6,992 nt of DNA from IMG/VR virus record IMGVR_UViG_2537562231_000012, positions 1-6,992 of that record; one strand, written 5' to 3'. How positions within the stretch are numbered: the stretch's first letter is position 1; every line of letters begins with the position of its first letter. A program made the translations under genes and the position numbers. The notes below the pieces were generated by a model. That model ran no database searches. It was not told where the DNA came from and saw only the letters and a program-made list of their open reading frames with translations. The stretch is from a virus. Taxonomy: Duplodnaviria > Heunggongvirae > Uroviricota > Caudoviricetes. This document shows positions 1-6,992 of the stretch, piece by piece.

Positions 1-2247
1 TGCCTCCGAAAACCAGAACTCAAACTGTACCGTCGGGTCATACACCGCAAGACGCGGGACCGCTGTTATCTGAAAATAGCCCGGTGTCAGTTCAATCGTG
101 GCGGGTACCGCAGGTGCATTAATCCTGAACGTGGTGGTGGCCGGTTCCCCCTGCTGGCCATAACTGTTAATTGCCCTGACTGTCAGGGTGTATTCCCCGA
201 GCGGCAGACCACTGAAACGATGCTCTGTATCCGCAGTGATGGCGGTGGTCACCAGACGGCTGTCCTGACCGCTTCCACTGGTCAGGCGCAGACTGAAGCG
301 CACGCCCTTCACCACCCGCGGCGTGTCCCATTTCGCCTGCGCCAGATACTGGCCGTCAGCTGCGCTCACCTCCACCGTCAGGTGCTGCACTGCCGGAGGG
401 ATGACGCTGTTCAGGGTGCCTGACTGCGGCTCAAAGCTGGCCCCGTTATCCACGATGGCTTCTTTCTCCGGCACATGCTGCACTGCCGTGATGGCAAAGG
501 TACCGTCCGTGTTTTCCCGGATGGAAACACAGCGGAACAGGCGACGACGCAGTGACGGCAGGGAGAGTCCCCACACACCGTATGTCTCCACACCATCAGG
601 CAGGGTGCTGACCTGTATCCGGTCAGGCGCGGGGTGTGCAGTGATGGCCACGCTCACCGGCTTACCGCTGCCGTTAATCAGATTAACAGTGGCCGCACCG
701 GTCTCCGGCAGGGTCACCTCCCGGTCCAGCGTCAGGGTACGGCTGGCGGCATCGATGGACAGGACACGTCCGCCGGTCATGGTCCCGGCATAGTCGTTAT
801 CACAGATTTCAATGATGTCACCGGGTGTGTGACGCAGCCCCTGTGACCCGAGCGTGAAATCCACCGTCTGCGTTTCCAGCAGTCCGGTCTTTATCACCCA
901 CAGCCCGGCACGGTGGGCCTGACCGCGACTGGTGCAGCCGAACGCATCCATCTTCAGCAGGTTGCGCCCGTAGCGCAGTATGGCTTCCGGGTCTTCCACC
1001 AGTTCCGTGGAGGTCTGCCAGCCGTTCTGCGGGTCGGTGTAATTCACCTCCACCGCCGTGTGGCGGTCCTTCAGGGCGCTGAAGCTGTAGCGAAACCCCA
1101 CGCCGTTATCATCCACCACCACATCGCAGTTGGTGTACGGCCACACCACATCCGACGGGCGGTCCTGAACGAACGTCAGCGTCTGGCCGTTCCATACCGG
1201 CATACAGCGCATCGCCGAGCAGAAATCACTGAGAACGTCCCACGCCTTACGCTGTTGTGACAGGTACGCATTAAAGGTCATCCGCGGCTCTGTGCCCCCG
1301 AAACCATCCGGGACCGTCTGGTCGCAGTACTGCGCAATGGCATACAGCGCCCATTTGTCCACGTCTGCCGCCCCCAGACGTTTTCCCATGCCGTAGCGCG
1401 GGTGAGTCAGCATGTCCCACAGGCACCAGGCCGGGTTGTTGCTGTATGCCGGTTTCAGGCTGCCGTCCCAGATGCCGCTGTAAGTGCGTTTTTCCGGGTC
1501 ATAGTTTGACGGTACCTGGATGATGCGACCGCGGATATGGTAGTTCACCGTCATCTGCTGACCGCCAAACTGCTCCGCATCCACCTGCAGCCCCACAATC
1601 GCCGTGTTCGGGTAGCACTGTTTCACATCGATGATTTCGGTGTATGACGACCAGAGCGTCTTATTCTGCAGCTGGTCCGAGGTGCTGTCCGCTGTCTCCC
1701 GGACCATCCGGATGTTAAAGGGCCGCTCAGGCAGATTATCCAGAATCACCGACGCCAGAAACTGCGAGGTGGTCTTGCCGTTAATGGTGACATCCTTTTC
1801 CGTCACCCAGTTACCGTTACGCTGTAACTGAATCAGCAGGCGGACGGATGTCGGGTTTCGGTCACCCTTTGACGTGGTCTGCACCAGTGACTGCACCCCG
1901 AAGGTGACCCGCAGGCGGTCAATGTTCGCGGATGTAATGGTGCGCGTCACCGGCTTTGCCTTCGTCACTTCCACGCCCAGTGCGGTTTCCGCCCCGGAGG
2001 ACTCAAAGCCTTCAGGTGGTGTCTGCTCCTGCTCCCCGGCGCGCCAGACCGCGGTCACACCGTGTATCACGGGATTACCGTCCGTGTCCGTCAGCGGGGT
2101 TTTGTTCACCAGGATACTCTGCAACCCCTTCACCGGACCTTCAATCGGCCCTTCACCAATGGCATCAATCACACTCATCATCTGCGTGGATTTGAGATTA
2201 TCCTTCGCCTCTCGAGGCGTGTGCGCCCTGCCGCCACCTTTGCCCAT
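1..2247 (-). CDS. J: Tail tip / central tail fibre protein J (host specificity protein), N-terminal ~749 codons; C-terminal receptor-binding part lies beyond the window start
   Basis: Minus-strand frame with ATG at 2247..2245 (preceded by AAAGGGTGAGACA, SD-like GGTGAG). I translated the N-terminus by hand as [49 protein letters not shown], and the codons at 60..1 as [20 protein letters not shown], both matching the lambda J family as I recall it. The ORF runs off the window edge without a stop, which is why it is absent from the Met-to-stop ORF track. Position directly after I matches lambda gene order. Confidence 0.9.
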
Positions 2248-2278
2248 TGTCTCACCCTTTACTGTGATAACTGTTACG

Positions 2279-2312
2279 CACAAAAACAACAGGCATCCCT
2301 GAGGATGCCTGT
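2279..2312 (-). terminator. Terminator-like hairpin on the late-gene sense strand: 9-10 bp perfect stem (plus-strand CAGGCATCC / loop CTGA / GGATGCCTG at 2290..2311), followed on the minus strand by UGUUUUUGUG
   Basis: Perfect inverted repeat read directly from the sequence; U-rich tail only in the minus-strand orientation; ends about 30 nt upstream of the J ATG. Could act as an attenuator or RNA-processing/stability element rather than a full terminator, since J must be expressed. Confidence 0.3.
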
Positions 2313-2341
2313 ATCATCACTGAATAAAACTTCTGAATATC

Positions 2342-2377
2342 TTCACATTTTCACAAACTGACTGTGGTGCTAATAAT
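2342..2377 (+). promoter_or_regulatory. Candidate sigma70-like promoter on the plus strand (antisense to the late operon): TTCACA at 2350..2355 (second copy at 2342..2347), 16-nt spacer, AATAAT at 2372..2377 with TG at 2368..2369
   Basis: Hexamer matches 5/6 and 5/6 to TTGACA/TATAAT by eye, in an AT-rich context where chance matches are common. Positioned about 60-90 nt upstream of the plus-strand terminator at 2442..2474. Confidence 0.15.
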
Positions 2378-2441
2378 TTCTCTGTGTTAATGTTTTTGTC
2401 GTGACATAAGAATAATTCCTTACACTTAATCTTCGTAACGC

Positions 2442-2474
2442 TCCCGCAGTTCCGCAACTCTGCGGGATTTTTTT
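2442..2474 (+). terminator. Rho-independent terminator-like hairpin on the plus strand: stem TCCCGCAG (2442..2449) / 10-nt loop / CTGCGGGA (2460..2467) followed by T7 (2468..2474)
   Basis: 8-bp GC-rich perfect stem immediately followed by seven T on the plus strand; on the minus strand the same hairpin is preceded by A7 and lacks a U-tail. Lies just downstream of the I stop codon (2482..2484) on the opposite strand; my reading here agrees with the ORF-track translation of the overlapping 80-aa frame. Confidence 0.4.
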
Positions 2475-2481
2475 ATTCTTT

Positions 2482-3162
2482 TTACCCCTGCCGCCCGATA
2501 ACCACGACCTTTCCGCCCCCGCCTTCATCACGGGTGCTGATGTCCTGGGATATCCGTCGTGAACCAACCAGCATTTCCCCGTAAGGCACCGGCATCGGGT
2601 TCCCCTGGGCAATCATATTGTCCAGTGACGAAAAATACGTGTTCTGTTTACCGTTATCCGTTGCGCGGTAATCCGGTGTTTTTGCCTTCGGTGCCAGCAT
2701 CTGGGCCACACCACCCAGAATCATACTGGCACCCAGTGAAAACAGCATCGTGGTGGCAGAAAAACCACCGGCACTCAGGGCTGTACCCCATAACGCCATC
2801 GAGCCTCCGGCAGTGAAGAAAGAGCCCACGATGGCTGCCGCCCCCAGCACAATCTGCAGTCCACCCTTTCCGGCTCCGGCCAGTCGCGGCACAATATGGA
2901 TAACCGTTCCCTCACCCAGTTGTTCGTGAAGGCGGGCATACACCACCTCCGGTGCCGTGTCCTCACCGCGAATACGTATCTGGTACCACCCTTCGTTCAT
3001 CTGACGGCGGAATCCCGGCACCTGTAACGACAGCGCCCGGATGGCTTCCGCTGCCGTGTTCACATACAGGCTGAGGCGGCTGCCAAATCGTTGTAAATCC
3101 CCGTGAAGGCAGATGCGTGCCAGTGGCGGTGACGCCAGACAGAATGCGTTCGTCGTTGCCAT
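2482..3162 (-). CDS. I: Tail tip assembly protein I (226 aa); N-terminal ubiquitin-like (beta-grasp) region, central Gly/Ala-rich hydrophobic segment
   Basis: ORF-track 226-aa protein MATTNAF...VVVIGRQG with strong resemblance to lambda gpI as I recall it; start overlaps the 3' end of K in another frame, as in lambda; SD-like GGAGAGG about 11 nt upstream of the ATG. Confidence 0.92.
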   Translation of the reverse strand: MATTNAFCLASPPLARICLHGDLQRFGSRLSLYVNTAAEAIRALSLQVPGFRRQMNEGWYQIRIRGEDTAPEVVYARLHEQLGEGTVIHIVPRLAGAGKGGLQIVLGAAAIVGSFFTAGGSMALWGTALSAGGFSATTMLFSLGASMILGGVAQMLAPKAKTPDYRATDNGKQNTYFSSLDNMIAQGNPMPVPYGEMLVGSRRISQDISTRDEGGGGKVVVIGRQG

Positions 3163-3803
3163 TTTTCGGAATACCTCTCCCGTTTACTCAGTTGTTCAGG
3201 CAGATGGTGAAGCAGCTCACCGTTGCCGCAGTAAATGGCGGCATGGTTCGGTACCGAAGCACCAAAGCAGCACAGCAGAATATCGCCCGCCTGTGCAGAG
3301 GACAGGGGCACCCGGTAAAAGCCGGTGACCGCCATATTGTCCAGGTAAAGGTTCTGACCGTTGCGCCACCAGTCATCCTCGCGATGAAAATCCGGCATTT
3401 CAGTCCCCGCCAGATGATAAGCATCCCGGAACAGCGTGTAACAGTCCGTCACCCCGTGCTCAAAGCGCCGTCCTGTCAGATGTGGCACACAGCGGAATTT
3501 GTGAATGTCACCCCGGCAGACCAGCCACCAGGGCAGTGCGCTTTTTATCTGCAGCCGCCGGTCAGCCTCGCTCAGCCAGGGCAGCCCACCGGGATGACTG
3601 TGGACCAGTGCCACAATCTCCCCCTGCATCTCTGCCCGCAGCCAGTCTTCCGGTGCGATACGAAAATACGCCTCCGGCTCTGCGGAAATATTCACACAAG
3701 GGATATACCGCTCCCCCTCCGGCGTGCTTATCACGAAGCCGCACGACTCCGCAGGCGCACACCGCCGGGCATGTGCCAGAATCGCTGATTCAGTCTGTGT
3801 CAT
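3060..3803 (-). CDS. K: Tail tip assembly protein K (247 aa as the longest frame from ATG 3803): N-terminal JAB/MPN (JAMM) metallopeptidase-like domain plus C-terminal NlpC/P60-like cysteine peptidase domain
   Basis: Part of the 334-aa track ORF 3060..4064; I translated MTQTESAI from the ATG at 3803..3801, 10 nt after the L stop. JAMM motif H68-S-H70-x7-S78-x2-D81 (HSHPGGLPWLSEAD) is at about 3561..3602; candidate catalytic Glu in AESCGFVI (E19). NlpC/P60-like Cys in VTDCYTLF and His in PNHAAIY. Start codon choice is uncertain (no SD before 3803). Confidence 0.88.
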   Translation of the reverse strand: MTQTESAILAHARRCAPAESCGFVISTPEGERYIPCVNISAEPEAYFRIAPEDWLRAEMQGEIVALVHSHPGGLPWLSEADRRLQIKSALPWWLVCRGDIHKFRCVPHLTGRRFEHGVTDCYTLFRDAYHLAGTEMPDFHREDDWWRNGQNLYLDNMAVTGFYRVPLSSAQAGDILLCCFGASVPNHAAIYCGNGELLHHLPEQLSKRERYSEKWQRRTHSVWRHRHWHASAFTGIYNDLAAASACM

Positions 3804-3813
3804 AAACCGGGAT

Positions 3814-4512
3814 TTACTGCGAAAGTTTATTAATGGAAAGGAAACCGCCAAAATTGCCGACATTCCTGCGCAGTTCACACCCACGCATGCACTTGCTGCA
3901 TCTGTCCTTACGGATATCCGTGGTGGGGTTGTCGAACTCATCCGCCACCGCAGGACCGTTATACCCGCATTCATCTCCCCGGTAATCCCACATACAGGTA
4001 TTCGCCAGCATAATGCGACCGGGAAACAGCGCTCCGTCCGTCTCCGTCGGTGTTGCCAGCACAAACGAGGCTGTCATGGCCGTCAGCTCTGACATCTGCT
4101 CCACCACCCAGCGGTCGCTCAGCTCCTGCTCCGGGTCCGCTTCCGGATTGCCCGCCACAAAATTCACCGCATCCAGAAAACGGGCATACACCCGGCGGCG
4201 GACCACCGTGGCCCCCACCAGGCTCTGCAGGTCCTCCGCCATTCCGGTGACCAGACCGAACAGATTCGACACCGTCAGCGACGGGCGGGCACTGCTACCC
4301 TTCCCGTTCATCTCAAAACCGCTGCCGTCAATCGGGTATGCCTGATATTGCCGCCCCTGCCAGGTGACCGCCTCCCCTTTTTCATTCAGCTCATTGCAGA
4401 AAAAATACCGCTCACCACCCTGTACCGTCAGGTCGATTTCCCAGAGTACCACCCGCGGTGACTGCTCTGATTTAACCGACTCGTTCAGACTTTCTTCGTG
4501 AATATCCTGCAT
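3814..4512 (-). CDS. L: Minor tail protein L (232 aa), tail tip complex component
   Basis: ORF-track 232-aa protein MQDIHEESLNESVKSEQSPRVVLWEIDLTVQGG..., the lambda gpL family by recollection, including the C-terminal Cys-rich stretch (CSKCMRGC); the ATG at 4512..4510 shares one base with the M stop (TGATG on the minus strand). Confidence 0.95.
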   Translation of the reverse strand: MQDIHEESLNESVKSEQSPRVVLWEIDLTVQGGERYFFCNELNEKGEAVTWQGRQYQAYPIDGSGFEMNGKGSSARPSLTVSNLFGLVTGMAEDLQSLVGATVVRRRVYARFLDAVNFVAGNPEADPEQELSDRWVVEQMSELTAMTASFVLATPTETDGALFPGRIMLANTCMWDYRGDECGYNGPAVADEFDNPTTDIRKDRCSKCMRGCELRRNVGNFGGFLSINKLSQ

Positions 4513-4841
4513 CAGTTCACCACCTGCTTAAACTCGGCACTGAATTCAACCCGCAGCATGCGAACCCGTGATGACCAGGCGGCACAGGTCACCTTTATCT
4601 GCCGCCAGGCATAAGGCGGTGTCCACAGAAACGCCTTCCAGCCACCGTGCTCTGCCAGGAACGCTTCCAGATGCCGGGCCTCCTCCCGGGTCACGGAAAG
4701 CGTCACACGGTATGTTTTCAGGTCAGCATTCAGCCCTGCCGCCATACGCTGTGAGTACCCGTCACCAAAACGCACTTCACGCACCGACGGCTGCGAGTTC
4801 ACCTCCATATCCGGCTTCACTTTCCAGCGAAATGTTTTCAT
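4512..4841 (-). CDS. M: Minor tail protein M (109 aa)
   Basis: ORF-track 109-aa protein MKTFRWKVKPDMEVNSQPSVREVRFGDGYSQR..., the lambda gpM family by recollection; its ATG (4841..4839) overlaps the H stop TGA (4840..4838) as ATGA. Confidence 0.95.
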   Translation of the reverse strand: MKTFRWKVKPDMEVNSQPSVREVRFGDGYSQRMAAGLNADLKTYRVTLSVTREEARHLEAFLAEHGGWKAFLWTPPYAWRQIKVTCAAWSSRVRMLRVEFSAEFKQVVN

Positions 4842-6992
4842 CGCCCGCTCCCCGATAACATACCGCCATCACGCAACTGCAGCCGGAGCTCATCCTGCGC
4901 CCCCTTGCGGGCCATGTCATACACCGCCTTCATCAGCTGCGGCCCCGCCTGTCCGTTGATACCGTCGTTCTGAATCACCACGTTGTTGTTCTGCTCAAAT
5001 CTGATACCCTCTGAACGCCGCATCTGCGCCGGACTTCCGGCACCGCCCACATAACCACCTTCCGCATAGCCCCGCATCAGGCGGTACAGGTTGCCGACGC
5101 CAATCCGGCTGGTTGCCTCCTTCGTGAAGACAAATTCACCACGGTGAACAATCCCCGCTGGCTCATATTTGCCGCCGGTTCCCGTAAATCCTCCGGTTGC
5201 AAAATGGAATTTCGCCGCAGCGGCCTGAATGGCTGTACCGCCTGACGCGGATGCGCCGCCACCAACAGCACCGCCAATGGCGCTGCCGATACTCCCGACA
5301 ATCCCCACCATTGCCTGCTTCAGAAAAATCTCTGTCAGCATGGAGAGCACAGAACGGGTGAAACCACGCCAGCTCTGTTCGCTGCCGGTCAGCATCGCTG
5401 CCATATTCTGTGCAATACCGTCAAAGGTCTGCGTGGCCACGCTTTTAACCTGCGAAAAACTGTCCGTCGCACTTTCCGCCCACTCGCCCCAGCCGGACTT
5501 CAGACCGGCCATCCAGCTTCCACGAAGCTGCTCCTCCGCAGACCAGGTGTTCTTCAGTGCAGATGTGGCCTTCGCCAGCGCAGCCGGATTATCACCGTAC
5601 ACCTCACGAAGGCGCTGCTCTTCCGACTCCCGCTGCGCCTGACGGTCGGTGAGGCCGCGGGCTTTTGCGCTGATGGCTGCCTGCTTCGCGCTCTGCTGCT
5701 GTTCAAACCGCGCCGCCTGCTGTGCCAGCTCATTCAGCCGTTTCTGGTGTTCAACCTTGTCGCCAAGCTCAGCCAGCTGGCGTTTGTACTCCAGCGTCTC
5801 TTTCTCATGGGTCAGCAGGGATTTTTCCTGCTCAGATAACTGCCGTTTCGTGGCTGCCTCTTTCAGGACCGCATACTGATTTTCCGCTTTCCATAAATCG
5901 CGACGCTGCTGGCTGATTTTCCCATTCGCACCGCTGTGTTTTTCCAGCGTCCGGAGCTCGGTTTCAAGCGCCAGCAGGGCAGCATGCGCCTGGTCTTCCT
6001 GACGCTCACCGGCTGACACTTTGACTCCTGACGACTTCGGCTTTTTCAGCGTTGATTCATAATCCTTTTTCGCCGCCGCCATCAGCGTGTTGTAATCCGC
6101 CTGCAGGATTTTCCCGTCTTTCAGGGCCTTATTCAGTTCTTCCTGACGGGCGGTATATTTCTCCAGCGGCGTCAGCAGACGCTCATACGCCTTCTGCGCC
6201 TCTCCGGTATACTTCAGCTGTGATGCGTCCCGTTCGGCCCGGTCCCTGGCGGCCAGTTCACCGGCTTTTTCCATATCCGACTGCAGCGTGGCCGCTGCCA
6301 GCCCCAGACGGGCATTTTCCCGGTCATTCCATGCGCCCTGCAGGTTGGCACGGAAAGAGGAGGTCTTTCCCCGGCGCTGGCTCCGGCTCTGGTACCACTG
6401 CCATTTTTTATCCGCCTCATCGAATGCCTTCTGCGCACTGGCAAGCATATCCGCTGAGGATTCCGGACGACCAATATCCAGAATGGCATCCCACATCGAT
6501 TTGAACGCCTTCCCTGTTTTATCCGCCCAGGTCTCCAGCGTCCCCATGTTTTCTTTCAGGCGACGGGTCTGCTCATCAAAGCCTTTCGTGGCAGCATCGT
6601 TCGCCGCCTGTAAGGCCCCGGCCTCATCACCGGAACGCTGCAGCTGCGCAACATACGCAATCTGCTCTGCCGTCACGTTACGGAACTGGCGCGCCATCGC
6701 CATCAGTCCCGACGTCGGGTCGGTGGTCAGTTTTCCGAAAGCCTCTGCAACCTTGTCCACCTCCACACCGGATGCAGAAGCAAAACGCGCGACACTCTGG
6801 TTGATGGCATCAAACTGTTCACCACCACGCACACCGGCATTCACCAGGGCTGCCAGTGACTCTCTCGCCTGGTTAAACGTCAGCCCTGCTGCCTGCCCGG
6901 CTCTGGAGAGCGTCAGCATGCGATCGGCAGTCAGTCCGGACTGATTACCGGAAAGAACCAGGGTTTTATTAAACGCTGAAAGCGTGGAATCT
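4838..6992 (-). CDS. H: Tail tape measure protein H, C-terminal ~717 codons; the true start lies beyond the window end
   Basis: The track ORF 4838..6919 (693 aa) begins at an internal Met. I translated 6991..6920 by hand as DSTLSAFNKTLVLSGNQSGLTADR with no stop, so the frame continues to the window edge. Long charged Ala/Gln/Glu/Lys/Arg-rich helical region and a C-terminal Gly-rich hydrophobic segment (AMVGIVGSIGSAIGGAVGGGASASGG) are typical of tape measure proteins and of lambda gpH. Confidence 0.95.
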   Translation of the reverse strand, partial: DSTLSAFNKTLVLSGNQSGLTADRMLTLSRAGQAAGLTFNQARESLAALVNAGVRGGEQFDAINQSVARFASASGVEVDKVAEAFGKLTTDPTSGLMAMARQFRNVTAEQIAYVAQLQRSGDEAGALQAANDAATKGFDEQTRRLKENMGTLETWADKTGKAFKSMWDAILDIGRPESSADMLASAQKAFDEADKKWQWYQSRSQRRGKTSSFRANLQGAWNDRENARLGLAAATLQSDMEKAGELAARDRAERDASQLKYTGEAQKAYERLLTPLEKYTARQEELNKALKDGKILQADYNTLMAAAKKDYESTLKKPKSSGVKVSAGERQEDQAHAALLALETELRTLEKHSGANGKISQQRRDLWKAENQYAVLKEAATKRQLSEQEKSLLTHEKETLEYKRQLAELGDKVEHQKRLNELAQQAARFEQQQSAKQAAISAKARGLTDRQAQRESEEQRLREVYGDNPAALAKATSALKNTWSAEEQLRGSWMAGLKSGWGEWAESATDSFSQVKSVATQTFDGIAQNMAAMLTGSEQSWRGFTRSVLSMLTEIFLKQAMVGIVGSIGSAIGGAVGGGASASGGTAIQAAAAKFHFATGGFTGTGGKYEPAGIVHRGEFVFTKEATSRIGVGNLYRLMRGYAEGGYVGGAGSPAQMRRSEGIRFEQNNNVVIQNDGINGQAGPQLMKAVYDMARKGAQDELRLQLRDGGMLSGSGR

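Follow-up and report, generated by a model that had tools for sequence, protein, structure and literature searches.

A predicted antisense sRNA gene at the I-J junction of a lambdoid prophage, very probably a divergent allele of the EcOnc22/23/24-PasB family

Tail genes and the island between I and J

The DNA analyzed here (6,992 nt, hereafter the window, corresponding to positions 1 to 6,992 of IMG/VR record IMGVR_UViG_2537562231_000012) is, judging from its ORF list and Pfam matches, a lambdoid tail-gene block carried on the minus strand. The genes run from the tape measure gene H to the 5′ part of the tip attachment gene J (Table 1). An island of 234 bp, without any credible ORF, separates the stop codon of I (2482-2484) from the start of J. 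Two minus-strand ORFs that lie over the island, of 46 aa (2317-2457) and 80 aa (2370-2612) and both with TTG starts, were rejected as genes, as indels between alleles break their frames.

Among relatives of the window's I protein, the I-J gaps fall into length classes of ~54 (lambda-type), 234-261 (the class of the window), 296, 336-345, 709, and 852 nt. Because of these discrete classes, and because the lambda-type junction of ~54 nt has no island, we consider the island to be inserted DNA and the junction to be a “moron” site.

The island also contains a terminator-like hairpin on the strand of the late operon. The 45-nt stretch around it (2276-2320) folds with -18.9 kcal/mol. This hairpin belongs to the island and not to the plus-strand unit described below. 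It is kept across the short-island alleles, between which one stem pair changes from T-A to C-G, with T.G and C.A as intermediates. In the 336-345-nt class, a different, bidirectional-looking hairpin (GAAACCCCGGTATC-AGCA-GATACCGGGGTTTC) is found at the place where this hairpin sits in short islands.

Table 1 Features of the window and of its I-J island
Feature	Position	Strand	Remark
Tape measure gene H	4838-6919	-	
M	4512-4841	-	
L	3814-4512	-	
K	~3060-3803	-	JAB and NlpC/P60 domains
Tail assembly gene I	2482-3162	-	Pfam Lambda_tail_I, E = 2.7e-15
Tip attachment gene J, 5′ part	1-2247	-	ATG 2247-2245, runs off the window; Pfam FNIII-A_GpJ, Phage-tail_3, Ig_J
Terminator-like hairpin, late-operon strand	2289-2312, tail to ~2279	-	ACAGGCATCC-TCAG-GGATGCCTGT, then TGTTTTTGTG; ~40 nt upstream of the J ATG
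Conserved A/T-rich block	2324-2341	+	GAATAAAACTTCTGAATA, with a CTGAATA repeat inside; directly upstream of the promoter
Second TTCACA copy	2342-2347	+	from the sequence
-35-like TTCACA	2350-2355	+	promoter scan
-10-like AATAAT	2372-2377	+	promoter scan; 16-nt spacer after the -35
Predicted sRNA, PasB/EcOnc22-family allele	2385-2474	+	~90 nt; start at 2384-2386 predicted from the -10; 3′ end within the T-run
Three A-R-N triplets, AAG AAU AAU	2408-2416	+	read from the sequence
Anti-Shine-Dalgarno-like UUCCUU	2416-2421	+	before UUAAUCUUC
UUAAUCUUC	2426-2434	+	most conserved unpaired block of the RNA; alignment
Intrinsic terminator	2442-2474	+	8-bp stem TCCCGCAG 2442-2449 / CTGCGGGA 2460-2467, 10-nt loop 2450-2459, T7/U7 2468-2474

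Promoter, terminator and conservation of the plus-strand unit

The first-pass annotation of this DNA had proposed a short transcription unit on the plus strand of the island. The TTCACA and AATAAT hexamers on which it relied, with their 16-nt spacing, were recovered by our promoter scan. Together they match the consensus at 10/12 positions and form the best promoter-like site in the window, the sole one of that quality when both strands are scanned. The TG claimed to precede the -10 is not at the extended -10 position, since it lies two bases too far upstream (GTGCT-AATAAT). In shuffled windows, 0.30 matches of at least 10/12 are expected per window, and 25% of the shuffles have one. Given this chance expectation, the two hexamers alone are not significant. 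Significance comes jointly from the strong terminator 64 nt downstream on the same strand, the non-coding nature of the island and, above all, conservation and experimentally detected homologues.

The terminator was as announced, with an 8-bp stem followed by seven T residues, and its hairpin folds with -14.4 kcal/mol. The 92-nt stretch that includes it (2384-2475), whose folding had been suggested as a check, gave -21.8 kcal/mol, with z = -3.46 compared with shuffles. Across 16 distinct alleles, a 7-bp core of the stem is identical, the loop varies in length and sequence, and no consensus structure is kept outside the terminator. Covariation lends no support to the stem because the stem never varies. 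A hairpin followed by a U-tail is the usual site for the proximal face of Hfq.

The first-pass annotation had also made its proposal dependent on conservation of the hexamers and the hairpin among related islands, and this conservation was found. In an alignment of 31 distinct islands, the mean pairwise identity is 90% for the -35 region, 73% for the spacer, 88% for the -10, 63% for the RNA body (2399-2425), 91% for UUAAUCUUC, 43% for the segment before the stem, 100% for the stem, and 62% for the loop. The A/T-rich block upstream of the promoter reaches 94%, more than the promoter spacer, and may serve as an UP element or as a site for a regulator. This segment-wise conservation fits the pattern of a working gene made of a promoter, a seed, and a terminator. 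Within the RNA, UUAAUCUUC is a candidate seed or protein-contact site.

Relationship to PasB and EcOnc22-24 and distribution of the alleles

Two sets of previously detected RNAs map to the same junction in other prophages. PasB (pathogenicity-associated sRNA B) was discovered in RIL-seq data and verified on Northern blots (Pearl Mizrahi et al. 2021; PMC8550237). It is an 83-nt RNA of prophage PP6 of EPEC E2348/69 (NC_011601, 1466343..1466261, minus strand; Table S6 of PMC8550237), and these coordinates place it between I, which ends at 1466255, and J, which starts at 1466496. Its log2 fold changes are -6.8 and -2.4 in two conditions of Table S2, which we read as the hfq mutant versus the wild type (PMC8550237). 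It has 37 recorded RIL-seq interactions, and its partners include many mRNAs, among them those of type III secretion and bfp genes (PMC8550237). Read counts in EPEC lysogens are 482-1082 for PasB versus 5-15 for the flanking I and J, and PasB is reportedly higher in “non-activating” growth conditions (PMC8550237). EcOnc22 (Sp15, the Stx1 phage), EcOnc23 (Sp14), and EcOnc24 (Sp11) are Hfq cross-link peaks of O157:H7 Sakai (Tree et al. 2014; PMC4104026). EcOnc22 is seen as an RNA of ~85 nt on Northern blots and is destabilized without Hfq (PMC4104026). All three peaks are in I-J gaps, on the strand opposite the tail genes.

The precise placement of EcOnc22-24 depends on the version of the Sakai record. 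The coordinates of Tree et al. refer to NC_002695.1 (Table S2 of PMC4104026), and the record used for our comparison was NC_002695.2. Taken at face value on the latter, they fall upstream of the promoter. AgvB is located ~137-146 nt higher in NC_002695.2, and a check with PasA/EcOnc51 gave an offset of seemingly ~0. We placed EcOnc22-24 on the sRNA body because the published Northern probe maps there: its target is in the plus-strand body of the RNA from the Sakai island, immediately on the 5′ side of the terminator, which implies a shift similar to that of AgvB. Use of the published table (PMC4104026) against the current Sakai record would therefore misplace these sRNAs.

The window shares the layout of these loci. 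Its predicted RNA lies in the I-J gap, antisense, with 7 nt between the end of its T-run and the I stop codon. EPEC PP6 and the Sakai prophages Sp15, Sp14, and Sp11 show the same arrangement, with the terminator adjoining this codon. At the sequence level, it has its own sigma-70-type promoter and a Rho-independent terminator, bounding a predicted RNA of ~90 nt, as in this family. The islands of the window and EPEC PP6 align with 88% column identity. Over the transcribed region, the window allele shows 70.7% identity with PasB and 75.3% with EcOnc22, and the longest exact words in common are 15 nt and 19 nt, respectively. The homology to the mapped RNAs extends across promoter, body, and terminator, and the window lies inside a continuum of 38 distinct alleles. 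The published PasB probe matches the EPEC terminator exactly and the window terminator with mismatches.

At the level of individual elements, PasB resembles the window unit in its TTCACA, a homologous -10, the 7-bp CCCGCAG/CTGCGGG stem core, the U7 tail, and a UURAUCUUC block. It differs in its -10 (TATAAT, compared with AATAAT in the window), its A-R-N stretch, and its terminator loop. EcOnc22/23/24 share with the window the locus, the strand, the AATAAT, the 8-bp terminator stem, and a near-identical loop (with AACTCTGCGGGATTTTTTT in common), and their size of ~85 nt fits the prediction. They differ from it in their -35, which is TTCCGG, and in a shorter and different body (GAUGCCUGAAAAAUAACUCCAUAAC...). 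At the place of the window's A-R-N triplets, PasB has AAC AAA AAC AAC and EcOnc22 has AAA AAU AAC. The A-R-N motif is described as an Hfq site (PMC4104026), and the triplets of the window might be bound by the distal face of Hfq. The equivalents of UUCCUU are CUCCUU in PasB and several other alleles and CUCCAU in EcOnc22. By alignment, the annotated 5′ end of PasB matches position ~2398 of the window. Relative to the start expected from the position of the -10, it is shifted ~15 nt downstream, which may reflect RNA processing or imprecise mapping.

From the common locus and strand, the sequence homology, and the probe mapping, we conclude that the window unit, PasB, and EcOnc22-24 are alleles of one gene. 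Positions 2342-2474 of the plus strand thus very probably constitute an sRNA gene, an antisense moron of the lambdoid I-J junction and a divergent allele of the EcOnc22/23/24-PasB family. The homology to these RNAs at the same locus and strand supports what the first-pass annotation had put forward, namely, an RNA of ~90 nt, transcribed from its own promoter to its own terminator in antisense to the late operon, and the behavior of PasB and EcOnc22-24 likewise favors its suggestion that the RNA may be expressed from the prophage in lysogens.

A full-text literature search retrieved no paper that links EcOnc22 with PasB, and the equivalence of PasB and EcOnc22-24 appears to be new to the literature. 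The same search found EcOnc22 mentioned in a single review, which gives its target as unknown. When the full-text search was run with the sequence of the window allele, only unrelated papers were returned. An Rfam scan of the window at E values up to 1 gave nothing relevant. With the homologous EPEC and Sakai islands, no match was obtained at the gathering score; the AgvB and STnc100 controls were found at another Sakai locus. The window accordingly has no covariance-model match to the prophage sRNAs curated in Rfam (AgvB, AsxR, STnc100, Esr41, IsrK, and others).

An identity with AgvB or AsxR (RF02702, RF02703; PMC4104026) was considered first and was rejected, as both genes map near PR′, outside the tail operon. 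Like the window unit, they are short sRNAs at a prophage moron site, with a variable A-R-N 5′ domain and a conserved terminator. They are Hfq-bound (PMC4104026), and Hfq binding is predicted for the window unit from its sequence. Unlike the window unit, they are located downstream of PR′, where stx or another moron gene is their neighbor. With 51-60 nt they are also shorter, and they have no sequence similarity to it. AgvB and AsxR are classed as anti-sRNAs (sponges).

A pattern search of viral contigs yielded at least 119 loci. They represent 38 distinct alleles, 132-143 nt in length, among which one is identical to the window. A second sample was anchored on the I protein alone and was therefore unbiased towards the RNA. 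In this sample, the sRNA terminator is next to the I stop codon in 79 of the 80 islands of at least 230 nt. Among 5426 complete E. coli genomes, 1254 have the window-type allele and 956 the PasB-type, with no annotated feature under either type of hit among the matches listed. A 2026 survey of PasB in bacterial genomes used blastn with a word size of 28 and a query coverage >75% (Zhu, Shabalina & Storz, bioRxiv 10.64898/2026.05.13.724894). It should miss the window allele because of the low identity and the short longest word that this allele shares with PasB. With its divergent sequence and wide distribution, the window element is a new member of an sRNA family that was already known, and not a new kind of system.

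Several other observations were made during these searches. One viral contig (L164, IMGVR_UViG_2671180417_000006) encodes an I protein 100% identical to that of the window and matches the window DNA without differences over 2294-2478; the two probably represent one prophage or two that hardly differ. Among complete genomes, E. coli O39:NM F8704-2 is the closest, with the window allele at 98-99% identity and eight I-J island matches in its chromosome; O157:H7 F8797 carries the allele at 97% identity over 2379-2453. A species-level genome scan with the I protein returned mostly lambda-like junctions without an island. Lambda-like I-J junctions with an I protein ~65% identical were found on low-coverage contigs of taxa such as Chromatium, Paenibacillus, Bradyrhizobium, and Shewanella (L130-L143, L145, L151-L155, L157, L160), and a 96%-identical copy was found in a Streptomyces assembly (L127). 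These hits in unrelated taxa look like contamination of the assemblies with lambda or E. coli DNA.

Some I-J islands carry sodC, encoding a Cu/Zn superoxide dismutase (Pfam Sod_Cu, E = 3.9e-32), which is also antisense and has its own terminator. In the 852-nt islands (L192, L161, L189, L205, L226), sodC is followed by the sRNA body and terminator. The TTCACA/TATAAT promoter is missing there, and the homology resumes close to the predicted start of sRNA transcription. The 709-nt island of Citrobacter meridianamericanus (L149) has sodC and lacks the sRNA. These sodC-bearing islands led us to regard the I-J junction as a recurrent antisense moron site.

Mode of action and significance

The window unit is most likely an Hfq-dependent, trans-acting sRNA that would be expressed from the lysogen. 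Its homologues are discrete lysogen RNAs of ~83-85 nt that bind Hfq and are strongly reduced (PasB) or destabilized (EcOnc22) without it (PMC8550237, PMC4104026), and Hfq-mediated chimeras of a homologue with many cellular and virulence-gene mRNAs have been recorded (PMC8550237). In the window copy, the sigma-70 promoter would fire at ~2385, independently of the silent late operon, and transcription would stop at the terminator, with a 3′ end at 2470-2474, to give an RNA of ~90 nt. Recruitment of Hfq would rely on the terminator hairpin, its U-tail, and the A-R-N triplets. The unstructured middle, including UUCCUU and UUAAUCUUC, could then pair in trans with host or prophage mRNAs, plausibly at ribosome-binding sites. 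Because the body differs from those of both tested alleles, PasB and EcOnc22, the target set of the window allele may differ as well.

It is conceivable, but in our view unlikely, that the RNA acts mainly in cis. As a perfect complement of the I-J spacer of the late mRNA, it would provoke cleavage by RNase III or RNase E, or convergent transcription would interfere, and the expression of J and of the downstream tail fibre genes would be tuned in lytic growth. The antisense position of the unit speaks for this reading, as do its placement directly after the I stop codon in every sRNA-bearing island and the conserved late-sense hairpin that the island has before J. However, the RNA (~2385-2474) overlaps neither I, whose stop codon is at 2482-2484, nor the J ribosome-binding site, nor any other coding sequence. 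It starts ~137 nt upstream of the J ATG (2247) and is transcribed away from J. In three cognate pairs (window, EPEC, and Sakai), the pairing predicted between the sRNA and the initiation region of J was no stronger than in shuffled controls. In lysogens, in which I and J are hardly expressed, the homologues accumulate to high levels; they behave as Hfq-bound sRNAs with multiple targets, and lambda-type phages do without the island altogether. The locus tags of I and J are not among the entries listed in the accessible part of the EPEC RIL-seq table (PMC8550237). A regulation of J by the sRNA, which the first-pass annotation had envisaged, is not supported.

Lambda OOP is an example of a cis mode. 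It is a short RNA of a lambdoid phage, with its own promoter and intrinsic terminator and antisense to an operon; it covers the 3′ end of cII, and its action in cis depends on RNase III. The window unit is likewise short and antisense, with its own predicted promoter and terminator, but unlike OOP it has no coding overlap, and its homologues behave as trans-acting Hfq sRNAs.

Improbable to a greater degree is the view that the window copy is a silent relic, in which a weakened AATAAT -10 no longer drives useful transcription and only the terminator and the homology are left. The distribution of promoter forms in the I-anchored sample gives this view some weight. Of the 79 sRNA-bearing islands, 53 have TTCACA and a 16-nt spacer, followed by TATAAT in 48, by AATAAT, as in the window, in 4, and by GATAAT in 1; the others include the Sakai form (5), a TATCAT form (10), and islands of the sodC class that have lost the promoter (9). 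The frequency with which shuffled windows contain a comparable match points in the same direction. Against it, the O157 Sakai allele, which has the same AATAAT and a more degenerate -35 (TTCCGG), still gives a Northern band and Hfq cross-links (PMC4104026). In addition, 612 E. coli records contain the window-type body with 95-99% identity, and the promoter, the conserved block, and the terminator are all intact. That the unit encodes a very small peptide instead of a regulatory RNA is hardly credible: the 18-codon reading frame mentioned in the first-pass annotation, the one point in its favor, is not an ORF, the longest frame with an ATG, GTG, or TTG start on the plus strand of 2370-2480 has 6 codons and no Shine-Dalgarno sequence, and the alleles differ in length by indels that are not multiples of three, so that the unit can be regarded as non-coding, as that annotation had preferred.

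Within the preferred reading of a trans-acting sRNA, the alleles allow a further, tentative proposal, which we consider possible but rather doubtful. The I-J sRNA could be a modular locus for seed swapping, in which a fixed scaffold (promoter, UUAAUCUUC, and invariant terminator) is combined with at least 4-5 divergent body types that recombine among prophages. The body types observed, namely, window-like, PasB-like, Sakai-like, and those of two further loci (L171 and L202), are strongly divergent. If this proposal were true, co-resident prophages would provide a cell with several paralogous sRNAs with different regulons, to which cis action on the late mRNA during induction might add, and the window allele, which about a quarter of the complete E. 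coli genomes carry, would act on other targets than PasB and EcOnc22 do.

For the window itself, the first-pass annotation recognized, correctly and de novo, an element of a type already known; it did not uncover a new mechanism. The analysis had as by-products the equivalence of PasB and EcOnc22-24, an allelic series, and the recognition of the I-J junction as a site for antisense morons. The sRNA gene is invisible to current annotation, having no Rfam family and no annotated feature among the matches listed. Two literatures have described one locus under different names, and merging EcOnc22-24, PasB, and the divergent alleles would lead to a proper family model and to fuller surveys. As the homologues contact mRNAs of EPEC virulence genes and ride on Stx phages, allele-specific targets could matter for the way in which prophages rewire the regulation of their hosts.
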